64,000 nucleotides of DNA from a virus, in the IMG/VR virus record IMGVR_UViG_3300002301_000012, positions 30,041 through 94,040 of that record; one strand, written 5' to 3'. A program made the position numbers and the translations under genes. Shown piece after piece: positions 7,771-33,651 of this stretch (positions are counted from its first letter, which is position 1; each line of letters starts with the position of its first letter). The notes under the pieces were generated by a model, which was not told the origin of the DNA, did no database searches, and was given only the letters and a program-made list of their open reading frames with translations.

Positions 7771-8508
7771 GTGCCAGAGTTAAAATCACCGAAACATGAA
7801 TATTTTGCTATCGGCATCACAAACGACGTAAACCCTACGGAGGCTTACATTTCCGCTGGGTATTCGAAAGCTGGCGCGGCTGCCGGCGCATGGAGATTGT
7901 TAAATCTCAAAAAAATTCGTGATAGGATTAACGAATTACGAGCAGAAAGACACGCTGCCATCACAAAACGTGTGATAGAAGGCGAGATTCTGACGACGAC
8001 TGAATGCCTGATTGCTGAACGCAATCAACAGGTTAGGCTAAAGTGGCAGCGGTATCAAAAGCTATCACAAATTGTGCAGGAACGGACATCGTTCTTCACT
8101 GATCCAAAGAACGAGGCGATAATCGCACTGGGTGGACCGGACAAGCTTCCAGGCGTCGATACTGGCTTCGTGACGCTACGGTACAGGACACTTGGCCGAA
8201 AGGTCGTGCCGGAACTGAATCTGGATGTGCCTTTGTTGCGCGAGATGAGCTTACTGGAGGAACAGGTCGGTCGAATGATGGGATTCATCCAGCCGATCAG
8301 TATTAGCCAGACGAACAACAGTCAGACGGTCGCTGTGCAAGCCGTTCAGGCGAATGTATACATGCGGGACAAGCCACCTGAATTAGTCGGTCGGTCTGTT
8401 GATCAATTGCGAAAACTGATGGACCTCGCCAAGGCATGTCAGGCTTCTGGCGTTCACGTGGAACTGCCGCAACTTTCAGCGCCGCCTCCTGCTGCCGATG
8501 CTCGGTGA
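7771..8508 (+). CDS. terS: Terminase small subunit
   Basis: LKSPKHEYFA...TEAYISAGYS....A.RLL....IRDRINELR HTH, immediately upstream of TerL. Confidence 0.85.
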   Translation: MPELKSPKHEYFAIGITNDVNPTEAYISAGYSKAGAAAGAWRLLNLKKIRDRINELRAERHAAITKRVIEGEILTTTECLIAERNQQVRLKWQRYQKLSQIVQERTSFFTDPKNEAIIALGGPDKLPGVDTGFVTLRYRTLGRKVVPELNLDVPLLREMSLLEEQVGRMMGFIQPISISQTNNSQTVAVQAVQANVYMRDKPPELVGRSVDQLRKLMDLAKACQASGVHVELPQLSAPPPAADAR

Positions 8509-10243
8509 AGAGTTATTCACGAAAACGCAGAATGCTGCTGTCTGGTCCGCAATGTACCAGCCAGAAATCTATCGAGACAGGCCCGATGACTTTTCGCACA
8601 TGGTGCTCGACTCCGAAACATGGAGCAAGCAAAGCGAAATACTCAACAGCTTATGTCGTTATGGGCAGACGTGGGTTAAAGCCTGTCACGGTTCAGGCAA
8701 GAGTTATGCTGCGGCGCTGGCTTTGCTGTACTGGCTTGGGATCTGGGACGATGGCGTAGTCATATCAACCGCGCCGAAACAAGATCAAGTTGAACGCATA
8801 CTCTGGGGAGAAGTTCATGCTGCGATTCGTCGCAGCAAGTATCCGTGGCCGCAGCCAAACGTCGCCAGCCTGCGATTCAACGAAAAGCGTTATGCGACAG
8901 GAACGACCACTACAGTTACAGCGCAAAAAGGTTCAACAGCATTTCAGGGCACACACTCCGGCCATGTCCTGATCATCGTGGACGAGGCACCTGGTATTCA
9001 TCCTGCAATCTGGGGTGCTATCGAAGGTATTCGTGCGGCCGGCTACGTCCGCGTGCTGGCACTCGGCAACCCAACTATTCCCAGCGGTCCATTTTACGAT
9101 GCTTTCACCACTCGGTCGCCGAACATCAACTGCATTACGATTTCAGCATTCGACACGCCGAACTTCAAAGACGTGTATCTGAAGTACATAGACACACAGA
9201 CTGGCAAAATCGTTATTTTCGGCAACCTCAACGGGCGCAACCTTCTGGAGATGGATGTCGACGAACTGAACGACAATCCTGCGCCATATCTGACGACCAA
9301 AAGCTGGGTGCGCGAACTGTACGACAAGGTGGGACCGGATCACTACAGCTTCATATCGCGAGCGCTGGGACAATTCCCGCACGAAGCACCGGATTCTCTT
9401 ATCTCTCTTCGTTGGCTGGAACTGGCTGCCGAACGCGAGTTCTTTGCGGAAGATAATGACAAACCGATCAAAGGTGGTATCGACGTTGCCGGCCCAGGCG
9501 AGGACGAGACAACACTGTTTTTGCGCCAAGGTCGGAACGTGCTGCTACAGAAGGCATATCCAGAGGCTGACCCAACAGGACGTGTGCTGGCTGATCTGAT
9601 GCCGTTTAGGGATCGCATAGAAAACCTGAATATCGATGCTGATGGGATCGGATACTACTTCGCCAAAACCATCGAAAGCAATGGCTACAAGGTAACGTTT
9701 TGCCACGCTGGATGGGCAGCTATCGACACAGATCAATTCTTCAATTGGAAGGCTGAGATGTACTGGGGTTTCCGGATGCGGTGTCAGGCCGGCGACATCG
9801 CGGGATTAAAGGATTCCGTCACCTCTGGACAATTAACCACAATCCGTTGGAATAATAACCCCAGGGGTCAGACGGTGATAGAGTCAAAAGAGGATGCGAG
9901 GAAGCGCGGCGTGAAGTCACCGGATCGCGCAGAAGGAGCGATGCTTGCCTTCGCAGAGGCTCCAGTGCATGGAATCCTCGAACTTTGGCGCGATGAGTAT
10001 GAGGCGCAAAAGCGCAAGGCACCAGAGCCTCGCGGTCCGAAGGTGGAGGATACCACCGCGATACCGTTTAAAGAGCAGGCAGCCGCAGCCAAAGAAGAAT
10101 CCGAAGTGCCATGGACTAAGGCACCAGAATCAGCGCCTAAGCTACCAGCGCGGCCTGTGTGCGACCAGTGCGGTTCCACTGGCGTCCGTGTATTCAGCGA
10201 GGCGTGGCAATGCGCTGTGTGCGGTGCAAGCGGTAAGATCTGA
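8498..10243 (+). CDS. terL: Terminase large subunit with C-terminal Zn-ribbon extension
   Basis: Walker A KACHGSGKS, Walker B IIVDEAPG, LGNP, and nuclease motifs GIDVAGPGEDET and SPDRAE. Confidence 0.95.
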   Translation: MLGEELFTKTQNAAVWSAMYQPEIYRDRPDDFSHMVLDSETWSKQSEILNSLCRYGQTWVKACHGSGKSYAAALALLYWLGIWDDGVVISTAPKQDQVERILWGEVHAAIRRSKYPWPQPNVASLRFNEKRYATGTTTTVTAQKGSTAFQGTHSGHVLIIVDEAPGIHPAIWGAIEGIRAAGYVRVLALGNPTIPSGPFYDAFTTRSPNINCITISAFDTPNFKDVYLKYIDTQTGKIVIFGNLNGRNLLEMDVDELNDNPAPYLTTKSWVRELYDKVGPDHYSFISRALGQFPHEAPDSLISLRWLELAAEREFFAEDNDKPIKGGIDVAGPGEDETTLFLRQGRNVLLQKAYPEADPTGRVLADLMPFRDRIENLNIDADGIGYYFAKTIESNGYKVTFCHAGWAAIDTDQFFNWKAEMYWGFRMRCQAGDIAGLKDSVTSGQLTTIRWNNNPRGQTVIESKEDARKRGVKSPDRAEGAMLAFAEAPVHGILELWRDEYEAQKRKAPEPRGPKVEDTTAIPFKEQAAAAKEESEVPWTKAPESAPKLPARPVCDQCGSTGVRVFSEAWQCAVCGASGKI

Positions 10244-10249
10244 GAACGC

Positions 10250-10277
10250 AAAAAAGCCCGCTCCGGAAGAGCGGGCT
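10250..10277 (-). terminator. Intrinsic terminator between convergent units
   Basis: agcccgctc-cggaa-gagcgggct stem with an A6 tract on the left (U-tract on the minus strand). Confidence 0.75.
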
Positions 10278-10606
10278 GGTGCTGTCTAAGCAGCGGCTCA
10301 GAAATTCGCTCCAGACATGCAAGCGAAATCTGATCTTTTTTAAGCGAGCAGCCCTTTGAGCCGGATAGTAAAACGGCGGATATCGTCATGCGGACCACCC
10401 GCAGCCAGCAGAGACCAGTCGCAGAGCCTTGTCCAGCAGCAGACCGCCTTTGCCACAACACTGCGGTGCTGTTCATTTCCGGCTATTCGATGCGTGGATA
10501 TCCAGCGCTCTTGCACACGACTGGAACATGCGAAGGACTCCTGCCTCGTTTTCCCAGTCACCTTCGATGCTTTGCATCCAGATTAAATTGTCCAGCCAGA
10601 CAGGGT

Positions 10607-10771
10607 TCATCGTTTTCCTTTCTTCGTTCGCGGGCTGGCCGCTATCGCCAGTCGCACGCTGACTGCATTCTGTGCGCTCCGTTGCTCGGAGTCGAGCTTA
10701 CTCCACCGGGACAGTGCTGCCTCACGACGGGCGACGCTGACCTCCGCGCGGGATTTACGCTTGCGCGGCAT
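10607..10771 (-). CDS. Small basic protein (54 aa, MPRKRKSRAE...)
   Basis: Hand-translated. Abuts the upstream stop and is ATGA-coupled to a further 45-aa ORF (10473..10610). Confidence 0.5.
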   Translation of the reverse strand: MPRKRKSRAEVSVARREAALSRWSKLDSEQRSAQNAVSVRLAIAASPRTKKGKR

Positions 10772-11038
10772 TCAGATCGTTATCCTTCCACACTTTGCGT
10801 AAGTGCTGCGGATAGTTCGCAGGTCGCCGTATTCCGTGATCCAGCCGTTAACCGTAAGCCACGCATCAGCGTCTTCGTTCATCGCTTCGCGTGCCTGGCG
10901 AACCGTAAGCCCCTGTGCCATTTCCGTGCTAAAGGCATCGGTAGTGCCGATCTCTCGTACAATTCGCGCCGCAGCGGCTTCTGCCGACACCGAGCGAAAC
11001 TGAATCTTCATGTTGGTCGAATTGATGATGGTTACCAT
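10772..11038 (-). CDS. Hypothetical protein
   Basis: 88-aa ORF with GGAGG RBS. Confidence 0.65.
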   Translation of the reverse strand: MVTIINSTNMKIQFRSVSAEAAAARIVREIGTTDAFSTEMAQGLTVRQAREAMNEDADAWLTVNGWITEYGDLRTIRSTYAKCGRITI

Positions 11039-11041
11039 GGC

Positions 11042-11236
11042 TTATTTCGCCTCCTGTGTGGAGTATCTGTACTTGACGACACTGCCGAACAGGTCGTGTG
11101 TAACGCCAGGTGAGCGTAGCGTACTGTATCTACCGGCACGCAGGTAGTAGATCGCATTCATGATGCTGCGCCATGCTCCAGGTGACTTGGTATCGTCCGC
11201 TGCCTGTGCGAGAACTTCAATCGGATCGATCTTCAT
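11042..11236 (-). CDS. Hypothetical protein (MKIDPIEVL...)
   Basis: AGGAG RBS before the ATG at 11236, downstream of the promoter at 11296-11324. Confidence 0.6.
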   Translation of the reverse strand: MKIDPIEVLAQAADDTKSPGAWRSIMNAIYYLRAGRYSTLRSPGVTHDLFGSVVKYRYSTQEAK

Positions 11237-11295
11237 TTGCTTTTCTCCTATTTTCGTTTCCATTTTTTCCCTCGATCAACCTTCGATCTGATACC

Positions 11296-11324
11296 AGTAT
11301 ACACGGTGCAAATGCACTTTGCAA
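11296..11324 (-). promoter_or_regulatory. sigma70-like promoter TTGCAA-N17-TATACT
   Basis: Read directly. The spacer contains the palindrome gtgcaaatgcac, a possible operator. Confidence 0.65.
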
Positions 11325-11592
11325 TACATGATGCAAATGGTTTGCGAAAGAAAGGCGAACGTACTGTTAAATCATGTCGTACAATGAGTCCTATGGAGCC
11401 ACCAAACCGCCAGTGCAGATGCGTTAACACCGATCCGATGAACTGCCGCAGGTATCGCGGACTGACTGGAGCCTGTGCTTGTCTTTGCCACGGCCAGCCA
11501 CAGCAGAAGGCCACCACTGCGCAGGAACTGCGAAAGCCGACAGGAACGCGGTCGGAGTTGAAAAAGTAGCACGGTGAAACATTACGCTGAAT

Positions 11593-11796
11593 ATGGATAC
11601 TAGAAACGCTTTTGAATCATTGGCTGCCGGCCTGAAGCGACGGAATAAGGCCAAGCGAAGCCAGCGCAGTCGGTTCAACGGGCCGTTGCCGGGATGCCAA
11701 GTGAAGGAGATTCACTGCTCTGGCAAGTGCAAGCAGTGCCTTGCAGTTCGCTCGCGCAACTACCGGCGATTCGGAACTACCGTTGCACCTCAGTGA
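11593..11796 (+). CDS. Small Cys-rich protein
   Basis: 67-aa ORF with C..H.C..C..C. A similar small Cys-rich ORF ends at 11569. Confidence 0.45.
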   Translation: MDTRNAFESLAAGLKRRNKAKRSQRSRFNGPLPGCQVKEIHCSGKCKQCLAVRSRNYRRFGTTVAPQ

Positions 11797-12061
11797 TTCG
11801 CGACCACTGCGCAATCGGCGGCGACAGCATTCCCTGCGAACGGAACCATATCTTCCATCCATCGCGTTCAAGTTGACGGTTAGCCTCGTTCCACTTCCAT
11901 CCACCGTGAACGCGAAGTCGGTCTTTCATATCTTCGATGGAAGTGTCTGGCGTGTATGGTTTGTAGCGTCCGAACAAATCGGGTCCGCTGCCAGCCCATG
12001 GAATAAGCGCGGCATCGGCACGTCCTGCTGCTATTGAGTCCTCAATGTCTTGAATATTCAA
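11777..12061 (-). CDS. Hypothetical protein
   Basis: 94-aa ORF coupled to the methylase stop. Confidence 0.5.
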   Translation of the reverse strand: MNIQDIEDSIAAGRADAALIPWAGSGPDLFGRYKPYTPDTSIEDMKDRLRVHGGWKWNEANRQLERDGWKIWFRSQGMLSPPIAQWSRITEVQR

Positions 12062-12690
12062 AATTGCAAAACCCCTTGGCTCAATCTTTTGGCAGAGATT
12101 TCACAATACCGCTCCTCGATCTCGATTCCGATGCACCGACGATTTAGATCCTTGCAGGCACGTGCTGTTGTGCCAGATCCTAAGAACGGGTCCACAATTA
12201 ATTCACCTTCCAGCGATGCACGATTGATAAGCCACTTCCATTGATCGATAGGCTTCGGACAGGGATGGCCGTTCTTTTCTGCTGCGGTTGTCGCAGTGTA
12301 AGAATCAGGACGAGAGCCTTTCCCCGCATATGGGTCAGTGCCGTAAAACAGGATCGGCTGCCAACAAGTGAATCCCCACGGATTGACGCCAGATCCGGCA
12401 GGATAGGAAAAACTTCCGATCCAGTCCGGTTGAGGGTATCTGAATAGATGGCGGATTCCGCTGGTTAAAGCGATTCGCTTGGTAGAAAATCGCAATAGTG
12501 CAAGAACGGACAGTGCCAGCGTAACATCGTCTGCTGAATCGTGGCCGCTGGCGTAGTTCTCTCCGATGCCATACTGAGGATCTGTAATTGCGGCGTCGAA
12601 ACCTGCCTCGCATAATGCAGGCAGTAGATCCAAGCAGTTCGCGTGGTAAATCGTAATACCAGCCTGTTCATCCACGAAGTAAGGTTTCAT
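12058..12690 (-). CDS. N4/N6 DNA methyltransferase (beta class)
   Basis: ITIYHANCL, ITDPQYG, HPCPKP, VDPFLGSGTT and IGIEIEERYC motifs. Confidence 0.9.
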   Translation of the reverse strand: MKPYFVDEQAGITIYHANCLDLLPALCEAGFDAAITDPQYGIGENYASGHDSADDVTLALSVLALLRFSTKRIALTSGIRHLFRYPQPDWIGSFSYPAGSGVNPWGFTCWQPILFYGTDPYAGKGSRPDSYTATTAAEKNGHPCPKPIDQWKWLINRASLEGELIVDPFLGSGTTARACKDLNRRCIGIEIEERYCEISAKRLSQGVLQF

Positions 12691-12893
12691 TTTTGTTCGA
12701 AGTCCAATATACGCTGGTTGGCAAAGCGAAGTCGAGTCCTGCCAGCACGCCAGAGCTTACCAAGGCGGCTGCGCTCTGCTGGCGACCGGCGCGACCATAC
12801 CAGCTTCATTGCGGCGCTGCGGTTGCCGTTCACGGACGGCCTGTTTTTTCTCGTTGACAGTTCGCCTCTCAATGGATAATACTATAGCAAGTA

Positions 12894-13082
12894 GTGAGCG
12901 ACGAGACAACAGGAAATACAGTATCGATCAAGGCAAGGCTACGCAAGTGCCGCTTTTGCGGTTACGAGTGGGCGCTCAGATCGCTATTGCGTCCTGAGCC
13001 GACACGGTGCCCTAACAACGCCTGTCGGTCGACACGGTGGAAGGAAGGAACGAGGAGACGTGGAAAAAACAAACCAGCCTGA
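12894..13082 (+). CDS. Small Zn-ribbon protein
   Basis: CRFCGYEW...PTRCPNNACRSTRW. Confidence 0.7.
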   Translation: MSDETTGNTVSIKARLRKCRFCGYEWALRSLLRPEPTRCPNNACRSTRWKEGTRRRGKNKPA

Positions 13083-13890
13083 AGAAAATCAGGTAGTAAT
13101 ACAGGAGGCATCGTCGGACCTTCAGTTCTCGATCCACATGGAGCGCGTTCAGCAGGGTCCAACGTTCAACGACCTGCGCAAGATGTCGCGGCACGAGCGG
13201 TTGCGCCCGCTCATAGAGCAGCGCAAAGACCGCATCTATGCGGCTCCGTGGAAGTTCGAACCTGAGTCGCGGTACTGGCGCGGCAGCGATACGATCCAGA
13301 TGTCGCGAAGGCTGACAGAAGTATTTGCTGAGCCAGACGGCCTGATTCCATTTCAAAAGTGGCTGCGCATCGTGCTGGAGGATGTGTTCGTTGTCGATGC
13401 GGTCGCAGTGTATATCGAGAAGCGAGCGTTCAAGAAGCCACTATCAGAGGTTTTCCCTGATGGAATATCGGAAACGACCATTCGGCCTTACTTTCGACTG
13501 ATCGATCCTTCCACGATTGCATTAATAGTCGACCAGTTCGGCAACCGGCCAGTCTACACAGCAGAGCATCCTGTGCCGTTTGCAGTGCAGGCAACGGACG
13601 ACGAGCCAGTGTTTTTCAGCGAAAAGGAGCTTTACCACGGCATTCGGCACGACCGGCGCAAAGACGGCTGGCTGTGGGGCAAGAGCAAGATCGAGCAGGT
13701 CGCGGCGCTGGAGTACGAGTGCTCGCAGATGGTACTGAAGGAAAGCAAAGACAAGGCCATGTTCGGCGTGTTTGAACCGCTGATTGGCGACACTGCCGGC
13801 GACCTGGACTGGCTGGAAGAAATGATCAACGGAATTGTTATGCAGTGCTACGGTGAGACGCATTGCCGGTTCCGCTGGCTGGTGAACTGA
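13060..13890 (+). CDS. Truncated portal-protein paralogue
   Basis: FAEPDGLIPFQKWLRIVLEDVFVVDAVAVY aligns with WAKPDGFNTFRQWLRMLSEDLLVCDAVACY of the 18681 portal. Further collinear blocks are present. Confidence 0.8.
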   Translation: MEKTNQPEENQVVIQEASSDLQFSIHMERVQQGPTFNDLRKMSRHERLRPLIEQRKDRIYAAPWKFEPESRYWRGSDTIQMSRRLTEVFAEPDGLIPFQKWLRIVLEDVFVVDAVAVYIEKRAFKKPLSEVFPDGISETTIRPYFRLIDPSTIALIVDQFGNRPVYTAEHPVPFAVQATDDEPVFFSEKELYHGIRHDRRKDGWLWGKSKIEQVAALEYECSQMVLKESKDKAMFGVFEPLIGDTAGDLDWLEEMINGIVMQCYGETHCRFRWLVN

Positions 13891-13894
13891 TTTT

Positions 13895-14026
13895 ATGAGT
13901 TACGTGTGGGCTGATCCGTCGAGTAAAGATTGCATTGGCAAAGATGACGAACGTCCTTCACTGGCCGGGGCGATTTTTCTGGTCGTTCTGATCGTTGCGG
14001 CGCTTTCATTCTGGAAAGGACAGTAG
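13895..14026 (+). CDS. Small membrane protein (43 aa)
   Basis: Hand-translated, fills the intergenic gap, TM segment LAGAIFLVVLIVAALSFW. Confidence 0.5.
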   Translation: MSYVWADPSSKDCIGKDDERPSLAGAIFLVVLIVAALSFWKGQ

Positions 14027-14029
14027 GCT

Positions 14030-14401
14030 GTGCATCAGTCCATCCTCTACGACATCCTCGGTGTAAAGCGCGGCGCTACGGTTGACGAAATCAACAAAGC
14101 GTATCGCAAGCGAGCGTTCGACCTGCATCCGGATCGAAACCATAATCCAGATGCGCTGGAACAGATCAATCTACTGAATGTCGCGCGGGCCACGCTGGTC
14201 GACAAAAAGAAGCGAACGCAGTACGATGCCTCATTGATTCGGCTAGGCGGTGTCAGCCACGCCTGGTTCTGTCCTGAGTGCGATAACGTGCAGGTCTTTG
14301 TCAGCCAATACATCTGGAAGTGCAATGTATGTGGGCTGTGGGGAAGGCTGATCAAGGTAGCTGCTTACATCGGTGAGGAAGTGAAGGAGGTTCCCGCGTG
14401 A
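14030..14401 (+). CDS. DnaJ J-domain protein with C-terminal Zn ribbon
   Basis: LYDILGV..AT..EINKAYRKRAFDLHPDRN...LVD..KR.QYD with an intact HPD, followed by CPEC...CNVC. Confidence 0.9.
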   Translation: MHQSILYDILGVKRGATVDEINKAYRKRAFDLHPDRNHNPDALEQINLLNVARATLVDKKKRTQYDASLIRLGGVSHAWFCPECDNVQVFVSQYIWKCNVCGLWGRLIKVAAYIGEEVKEVPA

Positions 14402-14715
14402 TAGCGTACTGGTTCACTTGGTTATTTCTGGCTCTGGCAATAGCGTTCAACATGTATGTTCACTGGCGTGTTCGGCACGACCCAATGTGGCCGGATCGAG
14501 CGTTAGACGAACTGAGGTACACAATTCGCACTTTTCGGATTGTTGAACGACGGAAGGCTATACGTAAATACAAGCAGAAGATTGCTGAAGGAATGCGGCG
14601 ACCTAGGAAGGTCGAGATCATTGAATACGTGTGGGGACGCTGCATGACCAACACTGAAATCGAGTTTCTGATTTATGGGAATAACCTGATCGGTGGCAGG
14701 AGGTTTCCGAAGTGA
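14398..14715 (+). CDS. Membrane-anchored hypothetical protein
   Basis: N-terminal TM helix, GTGA-coupled on both sides. Confidence 0.65.
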   Translation: MIAYWFTWLFLALAIAFNMYVHWRVRHDPMWPDRALDELRYTIRTFRIVERRKAIRKYKQKIAEGMRRPRKVEIIEYVWGRCMTNTEIEFLIYGNNLIGGRRFPK

Positions 14716-14987
14716 CACAATCCATGCTCAACTTTGATCCGCCATCCATCCCGGTCAATGTGACAGTGGACCAGCGGGAAGTCAAACGCCTGTCGAAGCA
14801 GTGCGCCGCTATCCTCGAACGACTGCAAGCCGGCGATGCCACGAACCACGAACTGGCGCAGATTGCTCTGAAGTACACCAGCCGAATAAGCGACCTTCGT
14901 GCAGCTGGATACCAGATCGAAGTGGCTTCTCGCGATCACGATTCCGGCCTTGTTTGGTATAGACTAGTCAAGGAGAAAACGCAATGA
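14712..14987 (+). CDS. Winged HTH DNA-binding protein
   Basis: ILERLQAG.ATNHELAQIALKYTSRISDLRAAGYQIE...Y.L. Confidence 0.75.
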   Translation: MTQSMLNFDPPSIPVNVTVDQREVKRLSKQCAAILERLQAGDATNHELAQIALKYTSRISDLRAAGYQIEVASRDHDSGLVWYRLVKEKTQ

Positions 14988-15403
14988 CGAAGCCTGATTT
15001 GATGCTTTGCATGGCAGCCGCCGCTTGTTTATTTATGGTACGCGGTTCGGCCATGTACTTGCTTCGTTATTGGCACTGGTGGCGAGCACGTAAAGCTCTT
15101 GAGCGATTGCAGACACTAATGCAAAGCAGCGGTCCTGAGACATCGTACAAGCTGGCTATCGTTCAGCAGGCGTTGCTGGAACGCAAACCGCGACTGTTTC
15201 CTGTTCTTCGCGCCAACATCAATGCGTTGCGCGCGCTGGCCATTCTGTTGCCGGTAGCGATAAAGACTGTACTTCTGTGGAACCACGAGTTAACGTGGAC
15301 ATTCGTGGCCAGCCGGTATCCTGCCGAATGGAAACGGGCGTGCGCGATTTGTCCTAAATACGAAACAGTTCGCCAGCGGGAAGGCGTGAAGGAAATCGCA
15401 TGA
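14984..15403 (+). CDS. Hypothetical membrane protein
   Basis: ATGA-coupled ORF with hydrophobic segments. Confidence 0.6.
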   Translation: MTKPDLMLCMAAAACLFMVRGSAMYLLRYWHWWRARKALERLQTLMQSSGPETSYKLAIVQQALLERKPRLFPVLRANINALRALAILLPVAIKTVLLWNHELTWTFVASRYPAEWKRACAICPKYETVRQREGVKEIA

Positions 15404-15921
15404 TCTTTGAGCGCATCGGGCGGATATTCGCTCCCTCAAATTCGGTTGAAAAACCGGAAGTGGCCACCGATAAACCGTTGATAGAAAAGCCAGTTGCAGA
15501 TGAGGCGAATTGCTCAAGCATAAAGGGCAGATCGATGGTCGGCTACTCTCGGCGTGGGTTCTTGGGAATGCTGGCATCAGCTGCGGTCGCCTCTGAGATA
15601 AAAAAACCAGAATGGTTGAGCGAAATTCGGGATCGCGCTGATGCTCATGTTGCCAATCTCGCAGACGGTGGATACTACGACATAAAGTGGCCTATCAAAA
15701 CGCGGTGGCATGAGTTCGGTGTTTTGTGTACAGAAACACTAGAGGTTTTTATTCCGATGCAATCGCCTGTTGGTCTATCGCGTGGCGAGTACCATGTATC
15801 GGAGACTGGCGTTTTTACCTTCAATCAGGCCGACGCGAATAAAACCGTATCGATTTCACACAATGAATACGCGCGAAGAAAGTGTCCGGCGACTGCTGCG
15901 CTACCGTGGGACCACCGATGA
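15400..15921 (+). CDS. Chimeric protein: twin-arginine motif + capsid C-terminus-like segment + tail-tube-like segment
   Basis: SRRGFLG motif, plus internal alignments to the 27888 capsid and 32899 tail tube (see findings). Confidence 0.7.
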   Translation: MIFERIGRIFAPSNSVEKPEVATDKPLIEKPVADEANCSSIKGRSMVGYSRRGFLGMLASAAVASEIKKPEWLSEIRDRADAHVANLADGGYYDIKWPIKTRWHEFGVLCTETLEVFIPMQSPVGLSRGEYHVSETGVFTFNQADANKTVSISHNEYARRKCPATAALPWDHR

Positions 15922-16355
15922 AATTGATTCTGTTTGGTTTGATCCTGATTAGCGCCAATATCGCAGTGATCTGGTTGACGTTGCAGTTTCTACCGGCGAC
16001 AGTCTGGCCGGTACTGTACTATCGCAAGGCGCAACGCGCATGGGTGAAACACTCCCCTTTGCTTGATGCCAGGTGGCGTCGGCTGAAGTACTGGCCGCAC
16101 AAAGTCGCTCGGTCCTGGATTGAACGCTGGATGATTTGGCGTGTCCGCGAATACTTTCTGTGGTTCCCTGATCGGACCACCTGTCCAGCGTGCGGAAAGA
16201 AGGCTGTTCATCCGTTCGAGTTCCATCCGCAGGCGCGAGTCCTTCGAGTGACTTGCTTACGCTGCAAAGCCAACTTTCCGAAGCAGCCGATATATAGTGC
16301 GGCATCGTGGATGCCGGATCTACCAGTGGCAAAACCAAACAAGGAGCAGGAGTAG
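15918..16355 (+). CDS. Membrane-anchored Zn-ribbon protein
   Basis: MKLILFGLIL... TM segment, CPAC...CLRC, ATGA coupling. Confidence 0.65.
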   Translation: MKLILFGLILISANIAVIWLTLQFLPATVWPVLYYRKAQRAWVKHSPLLDARWRRLKYWPHKVARSWIERWMIWRVREYFLWFPDRTTCPACGKKAVHPFEFHPQARVLRVTCLRCKANFPKQPIYSAASWMPDLPVAKPNKEQE

Positions 16356-16361
16356 AAAAAA

Positions 16362-16562
16362 ATGAACGAAGAACCTCAATCGAAAGAACCATCTGGATTT
16401 GTTGTGCCAGTGAAGGCGATATCTGAAACACGGCTGGTTCACCAGGCCATTCAGGTATCGCGGCGCGACGAGCGAAACAGGGAAAACCATTCACTCGGTC
16501 TGCATGTGGATCGGATTCCGACCTGTCCAGACTGTCCACCGTACAGAGAGACACGTGCATGA
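16362..16562 (+). CDS. Hypothetical protein
   Basis: 66 aa, AGGAG RBS. Confidence 0.55.
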   Translation: MNEEPQSKEPSGFVVPVKAISETRLVHQAIQVSRRDERNRENHSLGLHVDRIPTCPDCPPYRETRA

Positions 16563-16879
16563 CCGGCGACCAGCGGATGTTCATTCGAAGACATTTGCAG
16601 TTTTTCGAGGAGGTTGATCCTCGGAATGGCAGACGCGCTGCAATTCGGGCGGCTTACGATTCAGGAATTAAAGCGCTGGAGATCGCTCGGTTTCTGCGGG
16701 TTCATCACAAAGCCGTCTATGCGGCAATACACCACAAACGGCCGGCCAAGACAACACTGGAGATGGCGCGGAAGCAGATCATCACCGCCCGCAAAGCGAT
16801 GTCACGAGCGCAAAGTGCATTGCGTGTTGCCGAAGGCAAAGAACGGGCGGCGCTGGAAAGGTTGAAGCTACGAGCATGA
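16559..16879 (+). CDS. HTH-containing protein
   Basis: AYDSGIKALEIARFLRVHHKAVYAAI. Confidence 0.6.
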   Translation: MTGDQRMFIRRHLQFFEEVDPRNGRRAAIRAAYDSGIKALEIARFLRVHHKAVYAAIHHKRPAKTTLEMARKQIITARKAMSRAQSALRVAEGKERAALERLKLRA

Positions 16880-17118
16880 GGCGCGTAAAGACTGCCGTTC
16901 CTATGGATGAGTGCAAGCGCAGGGTGTTAGCATTCATCCGCAAAGAGCCTAAGCGTTTACACAAAGCCTCTGAGTTTGCCTGTGAAATATGGCCTGACTC
17001 GGAATTTACAGCGCAAGGTGCCGGAGCCGCTGCTAGTCGTATTCTCAAGGCTTTGGAAAAAGATAACCTGGTTGAATGGATCAGTTCGACTGCGGACTGG
17101 GGATGGAGGTTACGATGA
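16876..17118 (+). CDS. Winged-helix protein
   Basis: AASRILKALEKDNLVEW...WRL, ATGA-coupled. Confidence 0.6.
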   Translation: MRRVKTAVPMDECKRRVLAFIRKEPKRLHKASEFACEIWPDSEFTAQGAGAAASRILKALEKDNLVEWISSTADWGWRLR

Positions 17119-17321
17119 GCCTTGAAGTCTACGGCGACGGCGATGCGGAAGACCTCTGCGAACTCGCAAACCGCTACGATCACAGCCTGTATCCAGATGG
17201 CAAGTGGCGCGAAGACGACTCGGAGCCAGGTAAGACCGACGCCGAGATGTGGGAGTACGTGGAAGACAGACGGCAATCGGATCTGGAGGATATGGCGTTG
17301 AGCGGGGAGGATATGGCGTGA
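17115..17321 (+). CDS. Small acidic protein
   Basis: MSLEVYGDGD..., GGAGG RBS, coupled to its neighbours. Confidence 0.55.
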   Translation: MSLEVYGDGDAEDLCELANRYDHSLYPDGKWREDDSEPGKTDAEMWEYVEDRRQSDLEDMALSGEDMA

Positions 17322-18547
17322 GTTTCGAGATCAGGCAGGGTCATACGCTCGACTTGCTCCGTGCGATGCCAACCGATAGCGTCCATTGCGTCTGTTCCTC
17401 GCCCCCCTACTGGGGGCTGAGGGATTACAAGATCGAACCTCAGATATGGAACGATCCCGGCAACTGCGAACATCACTTTACGGATGAAGAAATCGCTACT
17501 GAAGTCGGCCGGGGAAATTGGGCGCAGGCGGTTAATGGCCGTGGGGAGGCACAAGGAGATATCGCTGCCTTCCGTGAACCGATCCGAGCGACACAGTCGC
17601 GGGGCTTCTGTGCGTGTGGTGCCTGGCGTGGGCAACTCGGCATGGAGCCGACGCCGGAATTATTCATCGCGCATATTACCGATATCTTCCGCGAAGTACG
17701 CCGGGTGCTCAGACCAGACGGTACGTGCTGGATCAATATTGGTGACTCGTATGCCGCGCATCCTGGACAGCGCAAGACGACGGATAAGGCTGGTCCTAAG
17801 CAGCAGACGAATACAGCGTCTCCCCAGACGCCTTCACGCTGCGTCGATGGCCTTAAAGCCAAGGATCTCGTTGGCATTCCGTGGATGATGGCCTTTGCGC
17901 TTCGTGCCGACGGTTGGTATCTGCGTTCTGAGATCATCTGGCAGAAAATCAATCCCATGCCGGAATCGGTACGTGATCGACCGACAAAGGCGCATGAGCA
18001 AATCTTTCTTTTATCAAAGTCTTCAAAGTATTGGTACGACGCTGATGCGATTAAGGAACGGGCCGGAGACGATACGCACGCTCGATACGCGCGGGGTCGA
18101 TCAGACGACCACAAATGGGCCGATGGTGGACCAGGCAACCAATCCATAGCGAAATCATTCGCGCATATGGCAAACCGCGAACGTGTCCGCGCGGCTGGCG
18201 TGAATCCGAAGTGCGCCGAACCGGGCAGCGGGATCAAGCAGAACTCCAGTTTCAGCGCAGCGGTCAAAGACATCGTTGAATACCGCAACAAGCGCGACGT
18301 ATGGCCGATGGCTTCCATGCCAACACCGGAGGCGCATTTTGCTACCTTCCCGCTGGAGTTGCCGGAAACCTGTATTCTCGCTGGTTGTCCGCCGGATGGT
18401 CTGGTGCTCGATCCGTTTTCCGGGGCCGGAACCACTGGACTCGCCGCACTGAAGCATGGTCGTAGCTTTCTCGGGCTGGAACTCAATCCTGAATACATCG
18501 CCATCGCCCATTCCCGCCTGAACAAAAGGATGCCCCTGTTCGCTTAA
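17318..18547 (+). CDS. N4-cytosine/N6-adenine DNA methyltransferase
   Basis: SSPPYWGLRDY, VRRVLRPDGTCWINIGDSY, HFATFP and LDPFSGAGTT motifs. GGAGG RBS before the GTG. Confidence 0.92.
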   Translation: MSFEIRQGHTLDLLRAMPTDSVHCVCSSPPYWGLRDYKIEPQIWNDPGNCEHHFTDEEIATEVGRGNWAQAVNGRGEAQGDIAAFREPIRATQSRGFCACGAWRGQLGMEPTPELFIAHITDIFREVRRVLRPDGTCWINIGDSYAAHPGQRKTTDKAGPKQQTNTASPQTPSRCVDGLKAKDLVGIPWMMAFALRADGWYLRSEIIWQKINPMPESVRDRPTKAHEQIFLLSKSSKYWYDADAIKERAGDDTHARYARGRSDDHKWADGGPGNQSIAKSFAHMANRERVRAAGVNPKCAEPGSGIKQNSSFSAAVKDIVEYRNKRDVWPMASMPTPEAHFATFPLELPETCILAGCPPDGLVLDPFSGAGTTGLAALKHGRSFLGLELNPEYIAIAHSRLNKRMPLFA

Positions 18548-18641
18548 ACCTATTATGCAGATTTCCAACTTCAAACCCCTCGACAAAAACACCCTACGCG
18601 GCGTGTTATAGCCAGTTAGTTTCCTACTGACTAATCCTGTA

Positions 18642-18671
18642 TAGCGAAGAACAGTGCCTTTCGGTTATGAT
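18642..18671 (+). promoter_or_regulatory. Putative late promoter TAGCGA-N18-TATGAT, 9 nt before the portal ATG
   Basis: The same geometry recurs at 25655, 40352 and 48340. Confidence 0.6.
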
Positions 18672-18680
18672 ACGCACTGA

Positions 18681-21600
18681 ATGGCCAACTTCCAGGTACC
18701 AGAAGGCGCAAAGCGTCTTGGACCGATCAATGCTTTGATCGGAACGCAACCAACACAAGTCGCTGGTGTTTCGCCGTCGTTCTGGTTTTCTCCTCTTCAG
18801 CCTGTAACGCCAACAGCGCCATCCGATTACAAACCTCGCCAGTGGGGCTATCAACCTGGTGCCAACCTCATTTGGCAGCCGAAGTCGGACGAAGGCTACG
18901 GTTACGATCTGCTGCGTCAACTGTCTTTGTCTTGGGATCTTCTTCGCATGGCGCTGGAGATGAAAAAGGACGAAATCGGAGATGTCGAGTTCGAACTTCG
19001 GCTGAAGCGACAGGACAACGAGAAGCAGGCAGACTACAAAAACAGGACGCTGAAAGGCGCGAAAGAACTGCAAGACCTTAAGCAGTTCTGGGCCAAGCCG
19101 GATGGTTTCAATACGTTCCGGCAGTGGCTTCGTATGCTATCCGAAGATCTTCTGGTCTGCGATGCCGTAGCCTGCTATCTTCCGCGCGACAACAAAGGCA
19201 AAGTCGCGATGGTCATGCCGACTGACGGCGCATCGTGGAACAGGCTGCTCACCGATCAGGGAATCACTCCTCGCGATCCAACCAGCGCTGCATACCAACA
19301 GGTTTGTTACGGCTTCCCTGCATGGGATGGTACAACGCAGGACGTCGTGTTCAGTATGCAGAACCCGACAACATACCGGCGCTATGGGTACTCCCGCGTT
19401 GAAAGATGCCTGACAACAGTGGCCTTCGGTATTCGTCGTCAGATGTTCCAGATTGCGGAGTACTGCTATTCATCCGACACTGAGGTACTGACAAGCCGTG
19501 GTTGGCTGAAGTGGCCTGATGTCACCATGGACGATACATTTGCAACGCGGCGCATGGAAAGTGGCGAGTTTGAATGGCAGAAGGCTGAAGGTTACATTCG
19601 GAAACAGTTCAACGGTAATTTGATCCGTTTCAAAAATGTAAGCCTTGACATTTTGGTGACGCCAAACCACAGGATGCTCGTTGGTGACCTGCCCGGCAGA
19701 TACCAGCGCGGTTGTCCTACAGCAAAAGTTCCTCGCATCAAAGAGTGTTTAGTCGAAGCTTCCAATTTGGCTCTTCAGAGAGCGTTGTCAGGCCCGAACA
19801 TTTCGGCGTGGATTCCACAGGTTTCCGAATGGAATGGCGGCGTCCGTATCGAAGACAAGGTGTGGTTGTCTCCGAACAACAAAGAGATAACCGTTCGCAT
19901 GACAGGTGATCAGTACTGTGCCTTCATGGGCATGTACTTGGCAGAGGGATGCGTTGGCGGCAGCGAAAAACCTACACTTGTTCATATCTGCCAGCCAAAA
20001 GACAAAAAAGGAATCCATCAGATTTTCAGTGACATGTTGTCTGAGATCTTTGGTGCAGACGTACACCACGACGGAAAGATGTTTTCATGGTCACGAAAAT
20101 CATTGGCCTTGTACCTTCGGCAATTCGGGCTAGCAAATGAAAAGTTCATACCTGAAGAGATTAAGAACGCGCCCAAAGATCAATTACAGATATTCTGGCG
20201 ATACTACGCATTGGGTGATGGCGAATCGGCGACTGCTATCGGCGAAAAGAAACGTTCTCAGCAGGTATTCACTGTTAGTAAAAAACTGTCTGACGATCTG
20301 ACGGAAGTTGTGCAAAAAATAGGTTTGCGCCCAAATGTCGGTGTTCGCGCTGCGGGCAAAGCCTTTTTCGGTAAACCAGGACTGGGACGTGAAATAAACG
20401 CTAGTGAAGGCTATACGATAACTGCGACCGACCAGCCATGCACAAGAAATTGGGATGTTGAATTTGTCCCTTACGATGGTGAAGTGTTCTGCGTATCGGT
20501 GCCGAACCACACGTTGTATGTTCGGCGCAATGGGAAACATGCGTGGTGCGGGAACACGGCCGGCAATATACCGGAAGCGTTTTTGTTCATGCCTTCGGAC
20601 ATTCCACCGCAGCGACTGAAGGAGTTTCAGGATTACATCGATTCGATCCTAAGCGGTAATCTTGCGGAGCGTCGCAAGATCCGTATGATGCCTGGATTCG
20701 GCGACAGCGGCAAACCGAACATCGTGTTCCCGAAGGAAGCGCTGCTCAAAGATGAACTGGACGTGTGGTTGGCGCAGCTGGTTTGTGCGATTGTCGGCGT
20801 GAGTGCGCAGCCGTTCCTCAAAATGGTGAATCGCGCAAGTTCAGAAGAAGCGAACGACGCAGCCCGCGAAAAGTGGCTGAAGCCTGATGTCGATTTCTTT
20901 TGCGAGTACATTAATACCTGCCTTGAGCGCATGGGAATGGATCAGTACGAAATAGCTGCGAAGGCGCAGCGCGATACCGATCCACTGAAGCAGGCGCAGG
21001 CAGATGCGGCGGTGTGGGGTAAGGTTTACACGCCGAACGAACTTCGCGAGCAGCGCGGAGAAGATCCTGTGGAAGGCAAGAACGCAAACCGGCTCGGTGT
21101 ACTCAGTCCGATGAACGGTTTCATGCCACTCGATCCTGATGATGACGATCTGGCTTTGATGCAGCAAATGAAGGCTACTCCTCCCAAACCTGACGGAAGT
21201 GGTGGAGGTGGAGGTTCGCCGGCACCGAACGGCGGCGGTAGCGGTGGCAGCCCGAAGCCGAAGACTAAACCATCTGCAAAGAAATCGTTGGCAGCAACGT
21301 GGGATCTTGAAAAAGATCACAAGTACGGATGTATCATGGTTCCAATCGATCCAGCGTCCGAAGCCGGTCTTCGCATGAAAGCAATGAGGGATGCAATACC
21401 AGATGCAGACCTGATGGAAGGCAACGGAACCTCGCGCGAGGAAGAACCGCATGTCACTGTGCGATACGGGATCAAGGACGGCGGCGAAGGTCTGCCGGAA
21501 TACCTGACTGGCCTTGCACCATTCACGCTGAAGTTCGGTAAAACAATGGCATTTGCGCCTTCTGAACAGTCTGATGGCGCGGCTCCGCTGGTGGTTCAGG

Positions 21601-27887: not shown

Positions 27888-29519
27888 ATGTCAAGCCAAG
27901 CACTCGCAAGTCTGGCACTTCTCGGTAAATCTCTCGGCCAGGAGATGATGGCCACACTTCGAAAGGACGTCACGACTTCGGGGCTTAGCTCGACATCGCA
28001 GTTGTCGTACTACTACCTGGAACAGACGGCCAAGAACATCTACCCGGTGTTCTATCCGATTCTGGCCAGCACGCCTCGTGTCTCGCCGGAATGGGGTGGC
28101 CAGCGCGTCGGTGGTACGTCGGTCAACTGGAAAGCAGTTGTTTCCATCGCCAATGGCGGTGCGCCGTGGACGTCGGAAGGCAACCGCAACGCCTACATGA
28201 ACTTCACCACACGGAACTACACGGCGCAGCATAAGTCGTGGGGTCCGGACGTGAAGGTTACGTTCTTCGCGCAGCAGGCTGGTCTCGGATTCGACTCGAA
28301 TCTGGCCATCGCTCAGATGGGCGCACTGAACCAACTGCTCAACGACGAAGAGCGCATGATTCTGTTCGGCAACAGCGGACCGGCCAGCGCAGGTGGTAAT
28401 GGTTTTGCGCTCGGACAGTGCGCAACGCCGACACTGACTGCGGCCACAACCGGTGGCGCTCTTGCAAGCGGACTGACTTGCACAGTGTTTTGCGTCGAAC
28501 TGACTGGCTGGGGCGTTCGCTATGCCGGCACGATTGCTTACGGGCTGGCTGGCGGTGGCCTTGGTAAGAGCGGCGTTCAGCTTCCGTTTACACGGACCAA
28601 TGCGGACGGTTCTACCGACATCATCAACGGTGGCACTGGCATCGTATCAGCGACGTCTGCCGAAGTAACGACTGGCGGCAGCGGTAAGGCTTCGCTGACT
28701 GCGACTGTCGTTGGTTCTGTCGCAGCAATGGGCTGGGCCTGGTATCTGGACACCACGGATGCCAGCGTTGGCAATCTGGCGAACGCTTATTTCGTCGGCA
28801 CGACAACCGTTCCGACCATCACAATCACTGCCGTGCCTTCGACGTCAACCAATCAGGTTGGTAGCGCAACCGGCGCGAATGGAACCAGCCTGTCCACAGA
28901 CAACTCGTGGAATACGCTGGACATCGACGGTATCACAACCTGGAACATCGGCACGCAGGGTTCTTCGCAGCCTGCGTATCTGGCGAACCTTCAGGGCGCC
29001 GGATGGACTTCGAACGGTGACGGAACCATTGCGGAAATCGAAACAGCGGCCAACTACCTCTGGCAGAATTACGAAATCTCCATCGACCAGATTTTCCTCG
29101 GTGGTGCTCTCATTCAGTCGTTCTCCCGCGCTATCTTCACCACAGGCAGCGGAACGGCCGGAGCACAGCGCATCATCATCGACCGCGATGCGGCTGGCGG
29201 CGTAACAGGTGGACAGATCGTTCGCGAATACGTCTGGAAGTACAGCAACACTGCACTCCAGAAAATCGTTCCGGTCCGCGCGCATCCGTGGCTTCCCGGT
29301 GGTGTCTGCATGTTGGACCTGACGACCAATCCGTACCCGGCTGCCGGTGGCGCAATTCCGGCTGTTCGTCGCATGGTCATGCTTGAAGACCACTTTGCGA
29401 TTCGCTTCCCGTACGTCAACTTGCAGCATCAGCTTGGCACGTACGCATTCGGCACGCTGGAGCATTATCTGCCTTTCGGAGGCGGATTTATCACTGGCGT
29501 TGCCAACAAGGTCAACTAG
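27888..29519 (+). CDS. Major capsid protein with inserted beta-rich domain
   Basis: Position, strong AAGGAG RBS, and LEQTAKNIYPV..P....PRV, EERMIL.GN and HPWLP.G motifs. Confidence 0.85.
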   Translation: MSSQALASLALLGKSLGQEMMATLRKDVTTSGLSSTSQLSYYYLEQTAKNIYPVFYPILASTPRVSPEWGGQRVGGTSVNWKAVVSIANGGAPWTSEGNRNAYMNFTTRNYTAQHKSWGPDVKVTFFAQQAGLGFDSNLAIAQMGALNQLLNDEERMILFGNSGPASAGGNGFALGQCATPTLTAATTGGALASGLTCTVFCVELTGWGVRYAGTIAYGLAGGGLGKSGVQLPFTRTNADGSTDIINGGTGIVSATSAEVTTGGSGKASLTATVVGSVAAMGWAWYLDTTDASVGNLANAYFVGTTTVPTITITAVPSTSTNQVGSATGANGTSLSTDNSWNTLDIDGITTWNIGTQGSSQPAYLANLQGAGWTSNGDGTIAEIETAANYLWQNYEISIDQIFLGGALIQSFSRAIFTTGSGTAGAQRIIIDRDAAGGVTGGQIVREYVWKYSNTALQKIVPVRAHPWLPGGVCMLDLTTNPYPAAGGAIPAVRRMVMLEDHFAIRFPYVNLQHQLGTYAFGTLEHYLPFGGGFITGVANKVN

Positions 29520-32898: not shown

Positions 32899-33651
32899 AT
32901 GTATCAATTTGGTGATGGACTCATGTTCGTGGCTCCTGTGGGAGGCAACGAGGCGACCAATCCTTCGCCGTCGCAATTGCTGACGGTCCAGAGTTTCAAA
33001 TTCGACGTCAAGGTTACACTGGTGCCTCTGAAGGGGCAAAACCAGTTTCCCGATGACGTGGCACCGGGCGATAAAGAAGGGTCCGGATCTTTCGCCATCG
33101 GCAATAACCAAATCACGCAGGAGAACAATATTCTCTATGCCGATGCGCTGACAACAGGCATTAAACAAGTGACGCAGCAAACGGCGGCTATTCCAGGTTC
33201 ACCGTTTTCGATCACTGTGACCAACAGCGCCAACTTTTTCAAAGATCTTGGCGTGCGCAACTCCGCGACAGGCGCATTTTTCCAAGCCGTGGCCAGCGGA
33301 CCTACTGCTGGGCAGTATTCCGTCGCTGCTGGTGTGTATACATTTTCAACGGCAGACCATACTTCCGGTGTCAGTGTCATCATCAGCTATGCATGGACAG
33401 ATTCCAGCGTCGGAAACACGCTGACGGTAAACAATCAACTGATGGGCTACGGACCAATCGTGGAAATCTGGTTCTCGGAAACCTATCAGAGCGTTTCAGG
33501 CAATCCGAACGGACTTCATCTGTTCAATTGCCGCATCGGATCGGTGAAAAAGGATATTAAGCGAGACGGCTATCTGGTGCCTGAATACGACTTCATGGCA
33601 TATCCGAATTCGTCGAATCAGGTCTTCGAAGAGTTCCAGGTCGCCAACTAA
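32899..33651 (+). CDS. Tail tube protein with auxiliary beta domain
   Basis: MYQFG.G...L.GQNQFP..VA.G; AAGGAG RBS; followed by a terminator and the chaperone gene. Confidence 0.8.
   Translation: MYQFGDGLMFVAPVGGNEATNPSPSQLLTVQSFKFDVKVTLVPLKGQNQFPDDVAPGDKEGSGSFAIGNNQITQENNILYADALTTGIKQVTQQTAAIPGSPFSITVTNSANFFKDLGVRNSATGAFFQAVASGPTAGQYSVAAGVYTFSTADHTSGVSVIISYAWTDSSVGNTLTVNNQLMGYGPIVEIWFSETYQSVSGNPNGLHLFNCRIGSVKKDIKRDGYLVPEYDFMAYPNSSNQVFEEFQVAN

Follow-up and report, generated by a model that had tools for sequence, protein, structure and literature searches.

Partial copies of virion and packaging proteins among the genes that separate terL from the portal gene in a phage genome

We analyzed a 64-kb stretch of DNA (hereafter the window) that represents the right-hand part of the 94,040-bp IMG/VR record IMGVR_UViG_3300002301_000012 of an uncultured phage, for which completeness is estimated at 92 %. 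The genes for the large terminase subunit (terL) and the portal protein are separated in this genome by 8,437 bp, in agreement with the gap of ~8.4 kb from which the original prediction for this region started. In our assessment, there is about an even chance that the stretch between them (the terL-portal gap) is a hot spot for accessory genes that is particular to this phage lineage, with an old core of two genes supplemented by a later expansion, and not a single mobile island. Three of the genes in the gap encode proteins that copy parts of the phage's own portal, capsid, tail-tube and terminase proteins; judging from sequence comparison, these mimics are real and conserved but do not travel as a set. 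The genes at the borders of the gap, the three mimic genes and the presumed parents of the virion-like segments are as follows.

8498-10243, plus strand: large terminase subunit (terL), 581 amino acids (phrog_2, E = 4.5e-23; tblastn to annotated terminases)
13060-13890, plus strand: mini-portal, 276 amino acids (BLASTP, family of short proteins, AlphaFold2, Foldseek, VIA-align)
14030-14401, plus strand: J-domain protein with a C-terminal terL-type zinc ribbon, 123 amino acids (PF00226, 70.5 bits against a cut-off of 27.8)
15400-15921, plus strand: leader-plus-virion-peptide protein (leader protein), 173 amino acids (phrog_8234, E = 1.2e-4; phrog_13692, E = 7.9e-3)
18681-23873, plus strand: fusion of portal, 2H phosphoesterase and MuF, 1730 amino acids, with two inteins; right border of the gap (Pfam, PHROG, translation)
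27888-29519, plus strand: probable major capsid protein, 543 amino acids (phrog_13692); parent of the capsid-like segment through residues ~499-534
32899-33651, plus strand: protein at the tail-tube position, 250 amino acids (phrog_8234); parent of the tube-like segment through residues ~141-160

No close relative of this phage was found among 50,697 deposited phages. The related genomes G001 and G003 are collinear with the window across the structural genes, at 30-58 % identity, and G002 is more distant. The length of the terL-portal gap increases from ~1.9 kb in G002 through 3.15 kb in G001 and ~3.9 kb in G003 to 8.4 kb in the phage analyzed here, and in the nearest isolated phage, Brevundimonas phage Polewnik, the two genes overlap. 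A gene for a homolog of the leader protein and a J-domain gene (PF00226, E = 5e-16) directly precede the portal gene in G001, G003 and G004; the leader-protein homolog of G002 is found between the capsid and neck genes. The co-occurrence of the mimic genes in relatives that the original prediction implied is accordingly limited to the capsid-peptide and J-domain genes, which lie in or near the head module in three relatives: the gaps of the relatives contain no methylase, mini-portal or other gene of the island and also no tube piece or J-protein ribbon. Compared with its close relative G001, G003 has one additional gene in the gap (locus L018, 10485-11126, minus strand; phrog_5059), the 213-amino-acid product of which has a twin-arginine-like N-terminus, MNRRDMLRLFGVGATIV, and would be a second export-type protein at the putative hot spot.

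The gap does not appear to be a mobile element because it has no flanking direct or inverted repeats at its borders (short chance repeats only), its G+C content (0.52-0.58) is within the range of the window with no compositional break, and the same arrangement of the region is present in four studies. In addition, Pfam and PHROG scans of the region detected no integrase, transposase or recombinase family. The DNA in the contigs from these four studies, which cover freshwater, marine and fish-gut metagenomes, is identical, with no differences in the compared pieces of window positions 8000-20000, so the phage seems to be widespread; no variant lacking a part of the gap was seen among the matching contigs, and no RNA data set was among the listed carriers of the region's DNA. 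An apparent joint at 10338-11344 that emerged in the contig comparison had a shorter side of only 21 letters and was taken as a chance match to other DNA. The original idea of a counter-defense island is upheld with regard to the enrichment in protective genes (the two orphan methylases) and in derivatives of the phage's own portal, terminase, capsid and tube proteins but not with respect to a single island, given the absence of repeats, an integrase and a compositional break, and the organization of the genes in two transcription units that is described below.

The portal paralog that the original prediction placed in the gap is recognizable by both sequence and fold. This mini-portal shows 30 % identity to the phage's own portal over 122 amino acids (BLASTP, E = 6e-9) and is no closer to it than to foreign portals. 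Among 1.84 billion representative proteins, three short proteins (250, 321 and 260 amino acids, with 54, 46 and 36 % identity, respectively) match the mini-portal end to end and are followed by hundreds of full-length portals that match its residues ~29-215 only. The four short mini-portals have a common end point, the RFRW.V motif directly behind the last wing strand, and retain every nearly invariant residue of the aligned N-terminal part of the portal, down to 36 % identity, which implies that they are conserved rather than decaying. Neither terL nor the mini-portal, the latter used singly or as an alignment, revealed related loci in viral or Joint Genome Institute (JGI) metagenome collections, and the mini-portal is absent from G001, G002 and G003, each of which has one portal.

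A sequence search of the PDB found nothing for the mini-portal. Its AlphaFold2 model has a predicted local distance difference test score (pLDDT) of 87.5 and a predicted template modeling score of 0.83, matches solved portals in Foldseek (E = 2.7e-9) and aligns with the portal of phage 812 (PDB 8q7d) over 235 residues (VIA-align, Z 19.1, root-mean-square deviation 4.3). Compared with portal proteins, the mini-portal is smaller (276 amino acids vs at least ~340 in solved portals) and shares with them the fold, that is, the core of the wing and stem, along with the nearly invariant N-terminal residues. The wing core and the first stem helix are retained, whereas the N-terminal ~60 residues, the clip, the second stem helix with the tunnel loop, and the crown are missing from the alignment; in an alignment of 60 sequences, the ~125 columns of the clip and the second stem helix with the tunnel loop are reduced to ~30 residues in all members of the short family. 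The model thus depicts a conserved, folded wing-plus-one-helix derivative of the portal that, because the clip, the second stem helix with the tunnel loop, and the crown are absent, would be unable to form a DNA channel or to dock the terminase.

Intein 1 of the full-length portal gene, which contains LAGLIDADG-type motifs (window 19464-20600, portal residues ~262-640), interrupts the portal where its first stem helix ends, and the mini-portal lacks an internal stretch that starts ~15-20 residues downstream of the position equivalent to this site. An intein-bearing head gene of phage Snoke matched the window over 60 nucleotides; this match falls within intein 2 of the portal-MuF gene, not within the open reading frame (ORF) 14398-14715, and has no bearing on the gap.

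The leader protein, which the original prediction described as a capsid/tube chimera, indeed contains capsid-like and tube-like segments that score above shuffled sequences. Its layout consists of the N-terminus MIFERIGRIFAP, a segment at residues 42-58 resembling a twin-arginine translocation (Tat) signal, KGRSMVGYSRRGFLGML, a segment similar to the C-terminus of the capsid protein (residues ~89-124) and a tail-tube-like segment (residues 127-155). The only two PHROG matches of this protein are the families of the phage's own tube-position and capsid-position proteins. It is one of about 20 small proteins that form a family with a common N-terminal F.R.G.IF.P element, an invariant KGRSMVGYSRRGFLGML and highly variable C-terminal parts. 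The Tat motif S/T-R-R-x-F-L-K followed by a moderately hydrophobic stretch is present as SRRGFLGMLASAAVA, which is invariant in 20 family members and represents the only Tat-type motif in a credible ORF of this genome. The motif begins at residue 50 here vs ~26 in G001; Tat signals are expected within ~30 residues of the N-terminus.

Hidden Markov models (HMMs) of the capsid and tube proteins were each built from four homologs, and 6000 shuffled family sequences served as the control. The capsid HMM matched 8 family members, always through capsid columns ~507-541 (six at 11-26 bits and two at 4-5 bits; shuffle maximum 4.1 bits), whereas the tube HMM matched only the family member of this phage, through residues 127-155 (17.9 bits; shuffle maximum 9.1), suggesting that the capsid-like segment is an old trait of the family and the tube piece is a local addition. 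The small proteins of G001 and G003 could be matched to the C-termini of the respective capsid proteins even with plain BLASTP (48 % identity over 31 residues), and in G001 and G002 the capsid peptide is most similar to the capsid protein of the same phage. Comparison of the small-family profile with single capsid and tube proteins using hhalign yielded weak matches (probability about 1 %). In the family member P0009 (ENA), residues 111-141, directly after the capsid C-terminus-like segment, match the N-terminal capsid columns 50-80 at 21 bits, so members of the leader family can carry more than one capsid piece.

AlphaFold2 modeling of the leader protein was poor (pLDDT 57), and the capsid/tube-like part by itself was predicted to be disordered, as would be expected for a peptide that folds only on its partner. 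Its neighbors with tube-like or head-completion folds in the Atlas, with TM-scores of about 0.4 or less, can be considered a lead only, and complex prediction for the capsid/tube-like part and the 543-amino-acid protein gave no support for a contact and no verdict either way. As to the presumed parents, a homolog of the 543-amino-acid protein fills the capsid slot in Brevundimonas phage Polewnik; PDB sequence searches found nothing for the capsid-position and tube-position proteins or for a 449-amino-acid protein, and PF17236 (SU10_MCP), which was suggested by the Atlas, has no match in the genome. The nearest isolated phages with a homolog of the capsid-position protein are the Brevundimonas phages Polewnik and Strzyga (33 % identity), a weak hint at an alphaproteobacterial host.

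The third mimic is the predicted J-domain protein, which scored well above the PF00226 cut-off and contains the HPD tripeptide (as LHPDRN). It has neither the G/F-rich linker nor the four-CxxCxGxG zinc-finger domain of type I DnaJ; instead, the J domain is followed by one CxxC-x13-CxxC ribbon. The C-terminus of terL is a CxxC-x13-CxxC zinc ribbon as well (residues ~555-581), to which the ribbon of the J-domain protein shows 37 % identity over 27 amino acids; identity to the terL ribbon of G001 and G003 is 45 % over 29 amino acids, and the J-domain proteins of these two relatives lack the ribbon. The resemblance to terminase that had been raised as a possibility is therefore confined to this C-terminal zinc ribbon of ~27 residues. 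The terL of this phage (phrog_2) and the terL of G001 and G003 (phrog_979, 717 amino acids) are barely alignable, and yet they end with the same CxxC-x13-CxxC...WG.LI ribbon (window 9990-10243; locus L003, 8560-8757), which suggests a lineage-specific docking module on terL.

The remaining features of the gap are the following.

10255-10277, minus strand: intrinsic-terminator-like hairpin (10-bp stem, 7 GC pairs, T run) closing the leftward cassette (consensus scan and reading of the sequence; consensus match only)
10473-11263, minus strand: three or four small ORFs of 45, 54, 88 and 73 amino acids, the 54-amino-acid one doubtful (translations, codon usage)
11777-12061, minus strand: 94-amino-acid ORF with a 4-nucleotide overlap with the methylase stop (translation, codon usage; no match in a Pfam search)
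12058-12690, minus strand: orphan DNA methyltransferase (N6_N4_Mtase), 210 amino acids (PF01555, E = 2.9e-21; phrog_67, E = 1e-37; PADLOC type II and orphan methyltransferase models)
12691-12893: intergenic region between the two divergent units, with sigma-70-like promoters at 12735-12706 on the minus strand and at 12854-12883 on the plus strand (consensus scan)
12894-13082, plus strand: 62-amino-acid basic zinc-ribbon protein, the first rightward ORF, with a 23-nucleotide overlap with the next gene (weak UPF0547 match)
13895-14026, plus strand: 43-amino-acid single-pass membrane peptide (translation)
14398-15403, plus strand: three small ORFs of 105 amino acids (N-terminal transmembrane segment), 91 amino acids (phrog_21071, helix-turn-helix-like) and 139 amino acids (two transmembrane-like segments)
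15882-17321, plus strand: five small ORFs of 157 amino acids (transmembrane segment and zinc ribbon), 66 amino acids, 106 amino acids (HTH_23-like), 80 amino acids and 81 amino acids (acidic)
17249-18547, plus strand: second orphan DNA methyltransferase, up to 432 amino acids (PF01555, E = 5.6e-44; phrog_67, E = 2.7e-66; PADLOC MTase_II, E = 3.8e-91)

Both methylases noticed originally were found to belong to PF01555, with scores (76.9 bits for the first and 151.1 bits for the second) far exceeding the cut-off of 26.7 bits. The gene at 12058-12690 encodes the motifs DPQY and FLGSGTT, and that at 17249-18547 encodes SPPY and FSGAGTT; the true start of the latter is probably downstream of 17249. 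No cognate nuclease was detected beside either gene, as the PADLOC scan of the neighboring ORFs matched only methylase models and the Pfam and PHROG searches yielded no nuclease family; the two enzymes accordingly classify as orphan methylases rather than components of a restriction-modification system.

Instead of ~25 co-directional small genes, the gap contains about 20 genes organized in two divergent transcription units. Codon usage, scored with a test trained on the long genes of this phage, was negative for all plus-strand ORFs at 10388-12879, the translations of which are rich in Arg, Cys and Ser, so these are considered non-coding, whereas the minus-strand ORFs 10473-10610, 10772-11038, 11042-11263 and 11777-12061 and the methylase 12058-12690 had positive scores. 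The assignment of the strands, and hence the two-unit layout, follows from the translations and codon usage, and the promoter-like and terminator-like sites fit with it. The leftward cassette begins downstream of the promoter-like site 12735-12706, spans positions 12690 to 10473 and carries one methylase; the terminator-like hairpin 10277-10255 is located 12 nucleotides past the terL stop. For the small ORFs at 10473-11263, no Pfam or PHROG matches were found. Within the cassette, ~500 nucleotides at 11264-11776 contain no positively scoring ORF on either strand and no Rfam family or tRNA, and a promoter-like site (11324-11296, minus strand) is located at the edge of this stretch.

The rightward operon consists of 14 ORFs at 12894-18547, with the second methylase as the last gene, and the tight packing attributed to it by the original prediction is evident, with nearly every junction overlapping or no more than 6 nucleotides apart. 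The promoter-like site upstream of it (12854-12883) reads TTGACA-18-AATACT and agrees with the consensus in 10 of 12 positions; a candidate shared promoter motif, YTATAGCVAG, was dropped because it occurs only twice in the window. The zinc-ribbon, helix-turn-helix and single-transmembrane proteins reported for the gap are all represented among the small ORFs. Beyond the matches given here, the gap yielded nothing in Pfam, PADLOC or the PHROG function labels. The Lar-like ribbon match of the 157-amino-acid protein is below the threshold (17.3 bits vs a cut-off of 28.6), and the homolog of the 80-amino-acid ORF is found elsewhere in the genome of G002. The 81-amino-acid protein (17076-17321), encoded directly upstream of the second methylase gene and overlapping with it, is strongly acidic (isoelectric point 4.1) and matches no family; its charge makes it a candidate for a DNA mimic or an anti-restriction protein. 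A 14-nucleotide tandem repeat (17285-17298 and 17306-17319) is present at the 3' end of its gene.

In the scenario that we favor, the old core, which is also present in relatives, would consist of the gene for the Tat-like-leader protein with the capsid C-terminal peptide of ~35 residues and the gene for the J-domain co-chaperone. The gap could then have grown to 8.4 kb through the acquisition of the leftward, self-contained cassette with an orphan methylase and of the rightward operon, which would have added the mini-portal, the small DNA-binding, membrane and zinc-ribbon proteins, the acidic protein and the second orphan methylase. The methylases would protect the phage DNA against restriction, and the products of the three virion-derived genes might compete for the surface that is normally bound by the parent protein. 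Because the capsid-peptide and J-domain genes stay with the head genes in relatives, the partner of their products is more likely to be a component of phage assembly or a chaperone; the mini-portal, being sporadic, is more likely a dispensable accessory factor aimed at the host or at rival phages. Several points weigh against this scenario. A Tat-like leader would export the capsid-peptide protein, at odds with both head assembly and a decoy in the cytoplasm, and the correspondence between the leader protein and the capsid C-terminus of the same phage holds in only two of three lineages. The identification of the 543-amino-acid protein as the capsid protein and of the 250-amino-acid protein as the tube protein is probable, given gene position and PHROG family (for the former, also the capsid slot of Polewnik), and the role of competitive binder is deduced from protein architecture alone. 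Finally, promoter-like sites are no more common in the region than in shuffled sequences, so that each individual site can be taken as a lead only.

If the mimics acted as a multi-target immune decoy, the option put forward originally and one that we regard as rather unlikely, the fragments would be produced before the virion proteins and would occupy the receptors for portal, terminase, capsid and tube without triggering them, with the methylases adding protection against restriction. Such receptors are documented in bacteria, where they sense the portal (Avs4, Avs11, SpbK), the terminase (Avs1-3), the tail tube and other proteins (PMC13581612; PMC13728456). A decoy role would also be compatible with the fragments' lack of the working parts of their parents, with the sigma-70-like promoter that the operon shares with counter-restriction genes and with the sporadic presence of the mini-portal, as is usual for anti-defense genes. 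Yet one would expect a sensor to be activated, rather than silenced, by a copy of its trigger, and identity between the mini-portal and the portal that it would have to imitate is only ~30 %. Avs1-3 are reported to recognize the ATPase or nuclease folds of terminase, whereas the part shared here is the zinc ribbon. Besides, the capsid-peptide gene resides within the structural module in G002 and its product has an export-type leader; and, beyond the methylases, the ORFs of the gap match no known defense or anti-defense family in Pfam, PHROG and PADLOC, a set that includes no dedicated anti-defense library. It strikes us as quite unlikely that the lineage carries a dedicated virion-mimic module, composed of non-activating fragments of portal, capsid, tube and terminase, of which one would bear a shared targeting leader and another would recruit chaperones through its J domain, and that this module blinds several pattern-recognition receptors of the host simultaneously.

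The sporadic distribution of the mini-portal and its equal distance from own and foreign portals would also suit a weapon against rival phages, whereby the mini-portal and the capsid and tube peptides would co-assemble with, or cap, virion proteins of related phages or prophages and so poison their assembly. Satellites do poison assembly using homologs of capsid proteins. The mini-portal keeps the wing, which in portals is reported to contact the scaffolding protein and neighboring subunits (PMC13386823), and lacks the channel and the terminase-docking clip. We nevertheless deem this decidedly unlikely: the capsid peptides of G001 and G002 are closest to the capsid of their own phage and would poison self, and the Pfam, PHROG and PADLOC scans matched no superinfection-exclusion family. 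Another way to account for the fragments would be break repair in a genome rich in inteins and homing endonucleases, which could have scattered functionless in-frame pieces of genes; the two inteins of the portal-MuF gene, the start of the mini-portal deletion near the intein 1 site and the restriction of the tube piece to the family member of this phage all accord with this view. The conservation of the mimics disfavors it, however, and makes it very improbable: all ORFs are intact and translationally packed, the short mini-portals, at identities of 36-54 %, end alike and retain the invariant portal residues, the mini-portal model is confident, and 8 members of the leader family, which come from different phages, have preserved the capsid-like segment. 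The mini-portal might, lastly, be a portal specialized for moonlighting against host physiology and relieved of its assembly parts, for example, to inhibit RelA and SpoT as does the T7 portal Gp8, which binds both proteins and interacts more strongly upon deletion of the clip (PMC13483052), a domain that the mini-portal likewise lacks. Binding by Gp8 is abolished, however, by N-terminal, C-terminal or stem-reaching deletions and seemingly requires an intact ring (PMC13483052), and all the parts in question are missing from the mini-portal; such an activity appears barely plausible.

Bacterial immune receptors recognize the same proteins that are copied here, namely portal, terminase, capsid and tail tube, and the three compact, intact and conserved fragment genes could be used to test partial self-copies as decoys against such receptors. 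A virion-mimic module, if real, would be a so far undescribed counter-defense strategy. Independently of the decoy question, the analysis defines two unannotated protein families, the wing-only mini-portals and the leader-tagged family with the capsid C-terminal peptide, and indicates that the terL-portal junction can turn into a hot spot for accessory genes.

A literature search found no paper on truncated portal paralogs or virion-fragment decoys, in keeping with the original impression that no system of this form has been described; partial parallels nonetheless exist. The gap resembles moron regions with orphan methyltransferases in that it includes a self-contained cassette in reverse orientation, with its own promoter-like and terminator-like sites and an orphan PF01555 methylase, and in that the content varies between relatives at a fixed genome position; it differs from them in its site, between terL and the portal gene, and in three genes derived from packaging and virion proteins of the same phage. 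The T4 protein gp24 is a paralog of the capsid protein gp23, and Ccm of SaPIbov5 is a capsid homolog; here, too, a head or packaging protein has an additional, diverged version in a gene of its own, but only parts are copied (a portal reduced to the wing, 35 residues of the capsid protein, 30 residues of the tube protein and a zinc ribbon), and these parts are fused to unrelated modules (leader, J domain) and clustered in one operon. Phage RB43 encodes the J-domain protein Rki, with which the protein described here shares a stand-alone J domain with HPD and the origin from a lytic-type phage, whereas its C-terminal module is the terminase-end zinc ribbon of this lineage and the J gene keeps synteny with the portal gene across relatives. 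The internal proteins of T4 combine a common capsid-targeting sequence with variable cargo, and the leader family similarly joins a short, highly conserved N-terminal leader to a hypervariable body and is encoded beside head genes; in contrast to the T4 proteins, its leader is twin-arginine-like, and its cargo includes copies of capsid and tube segments.

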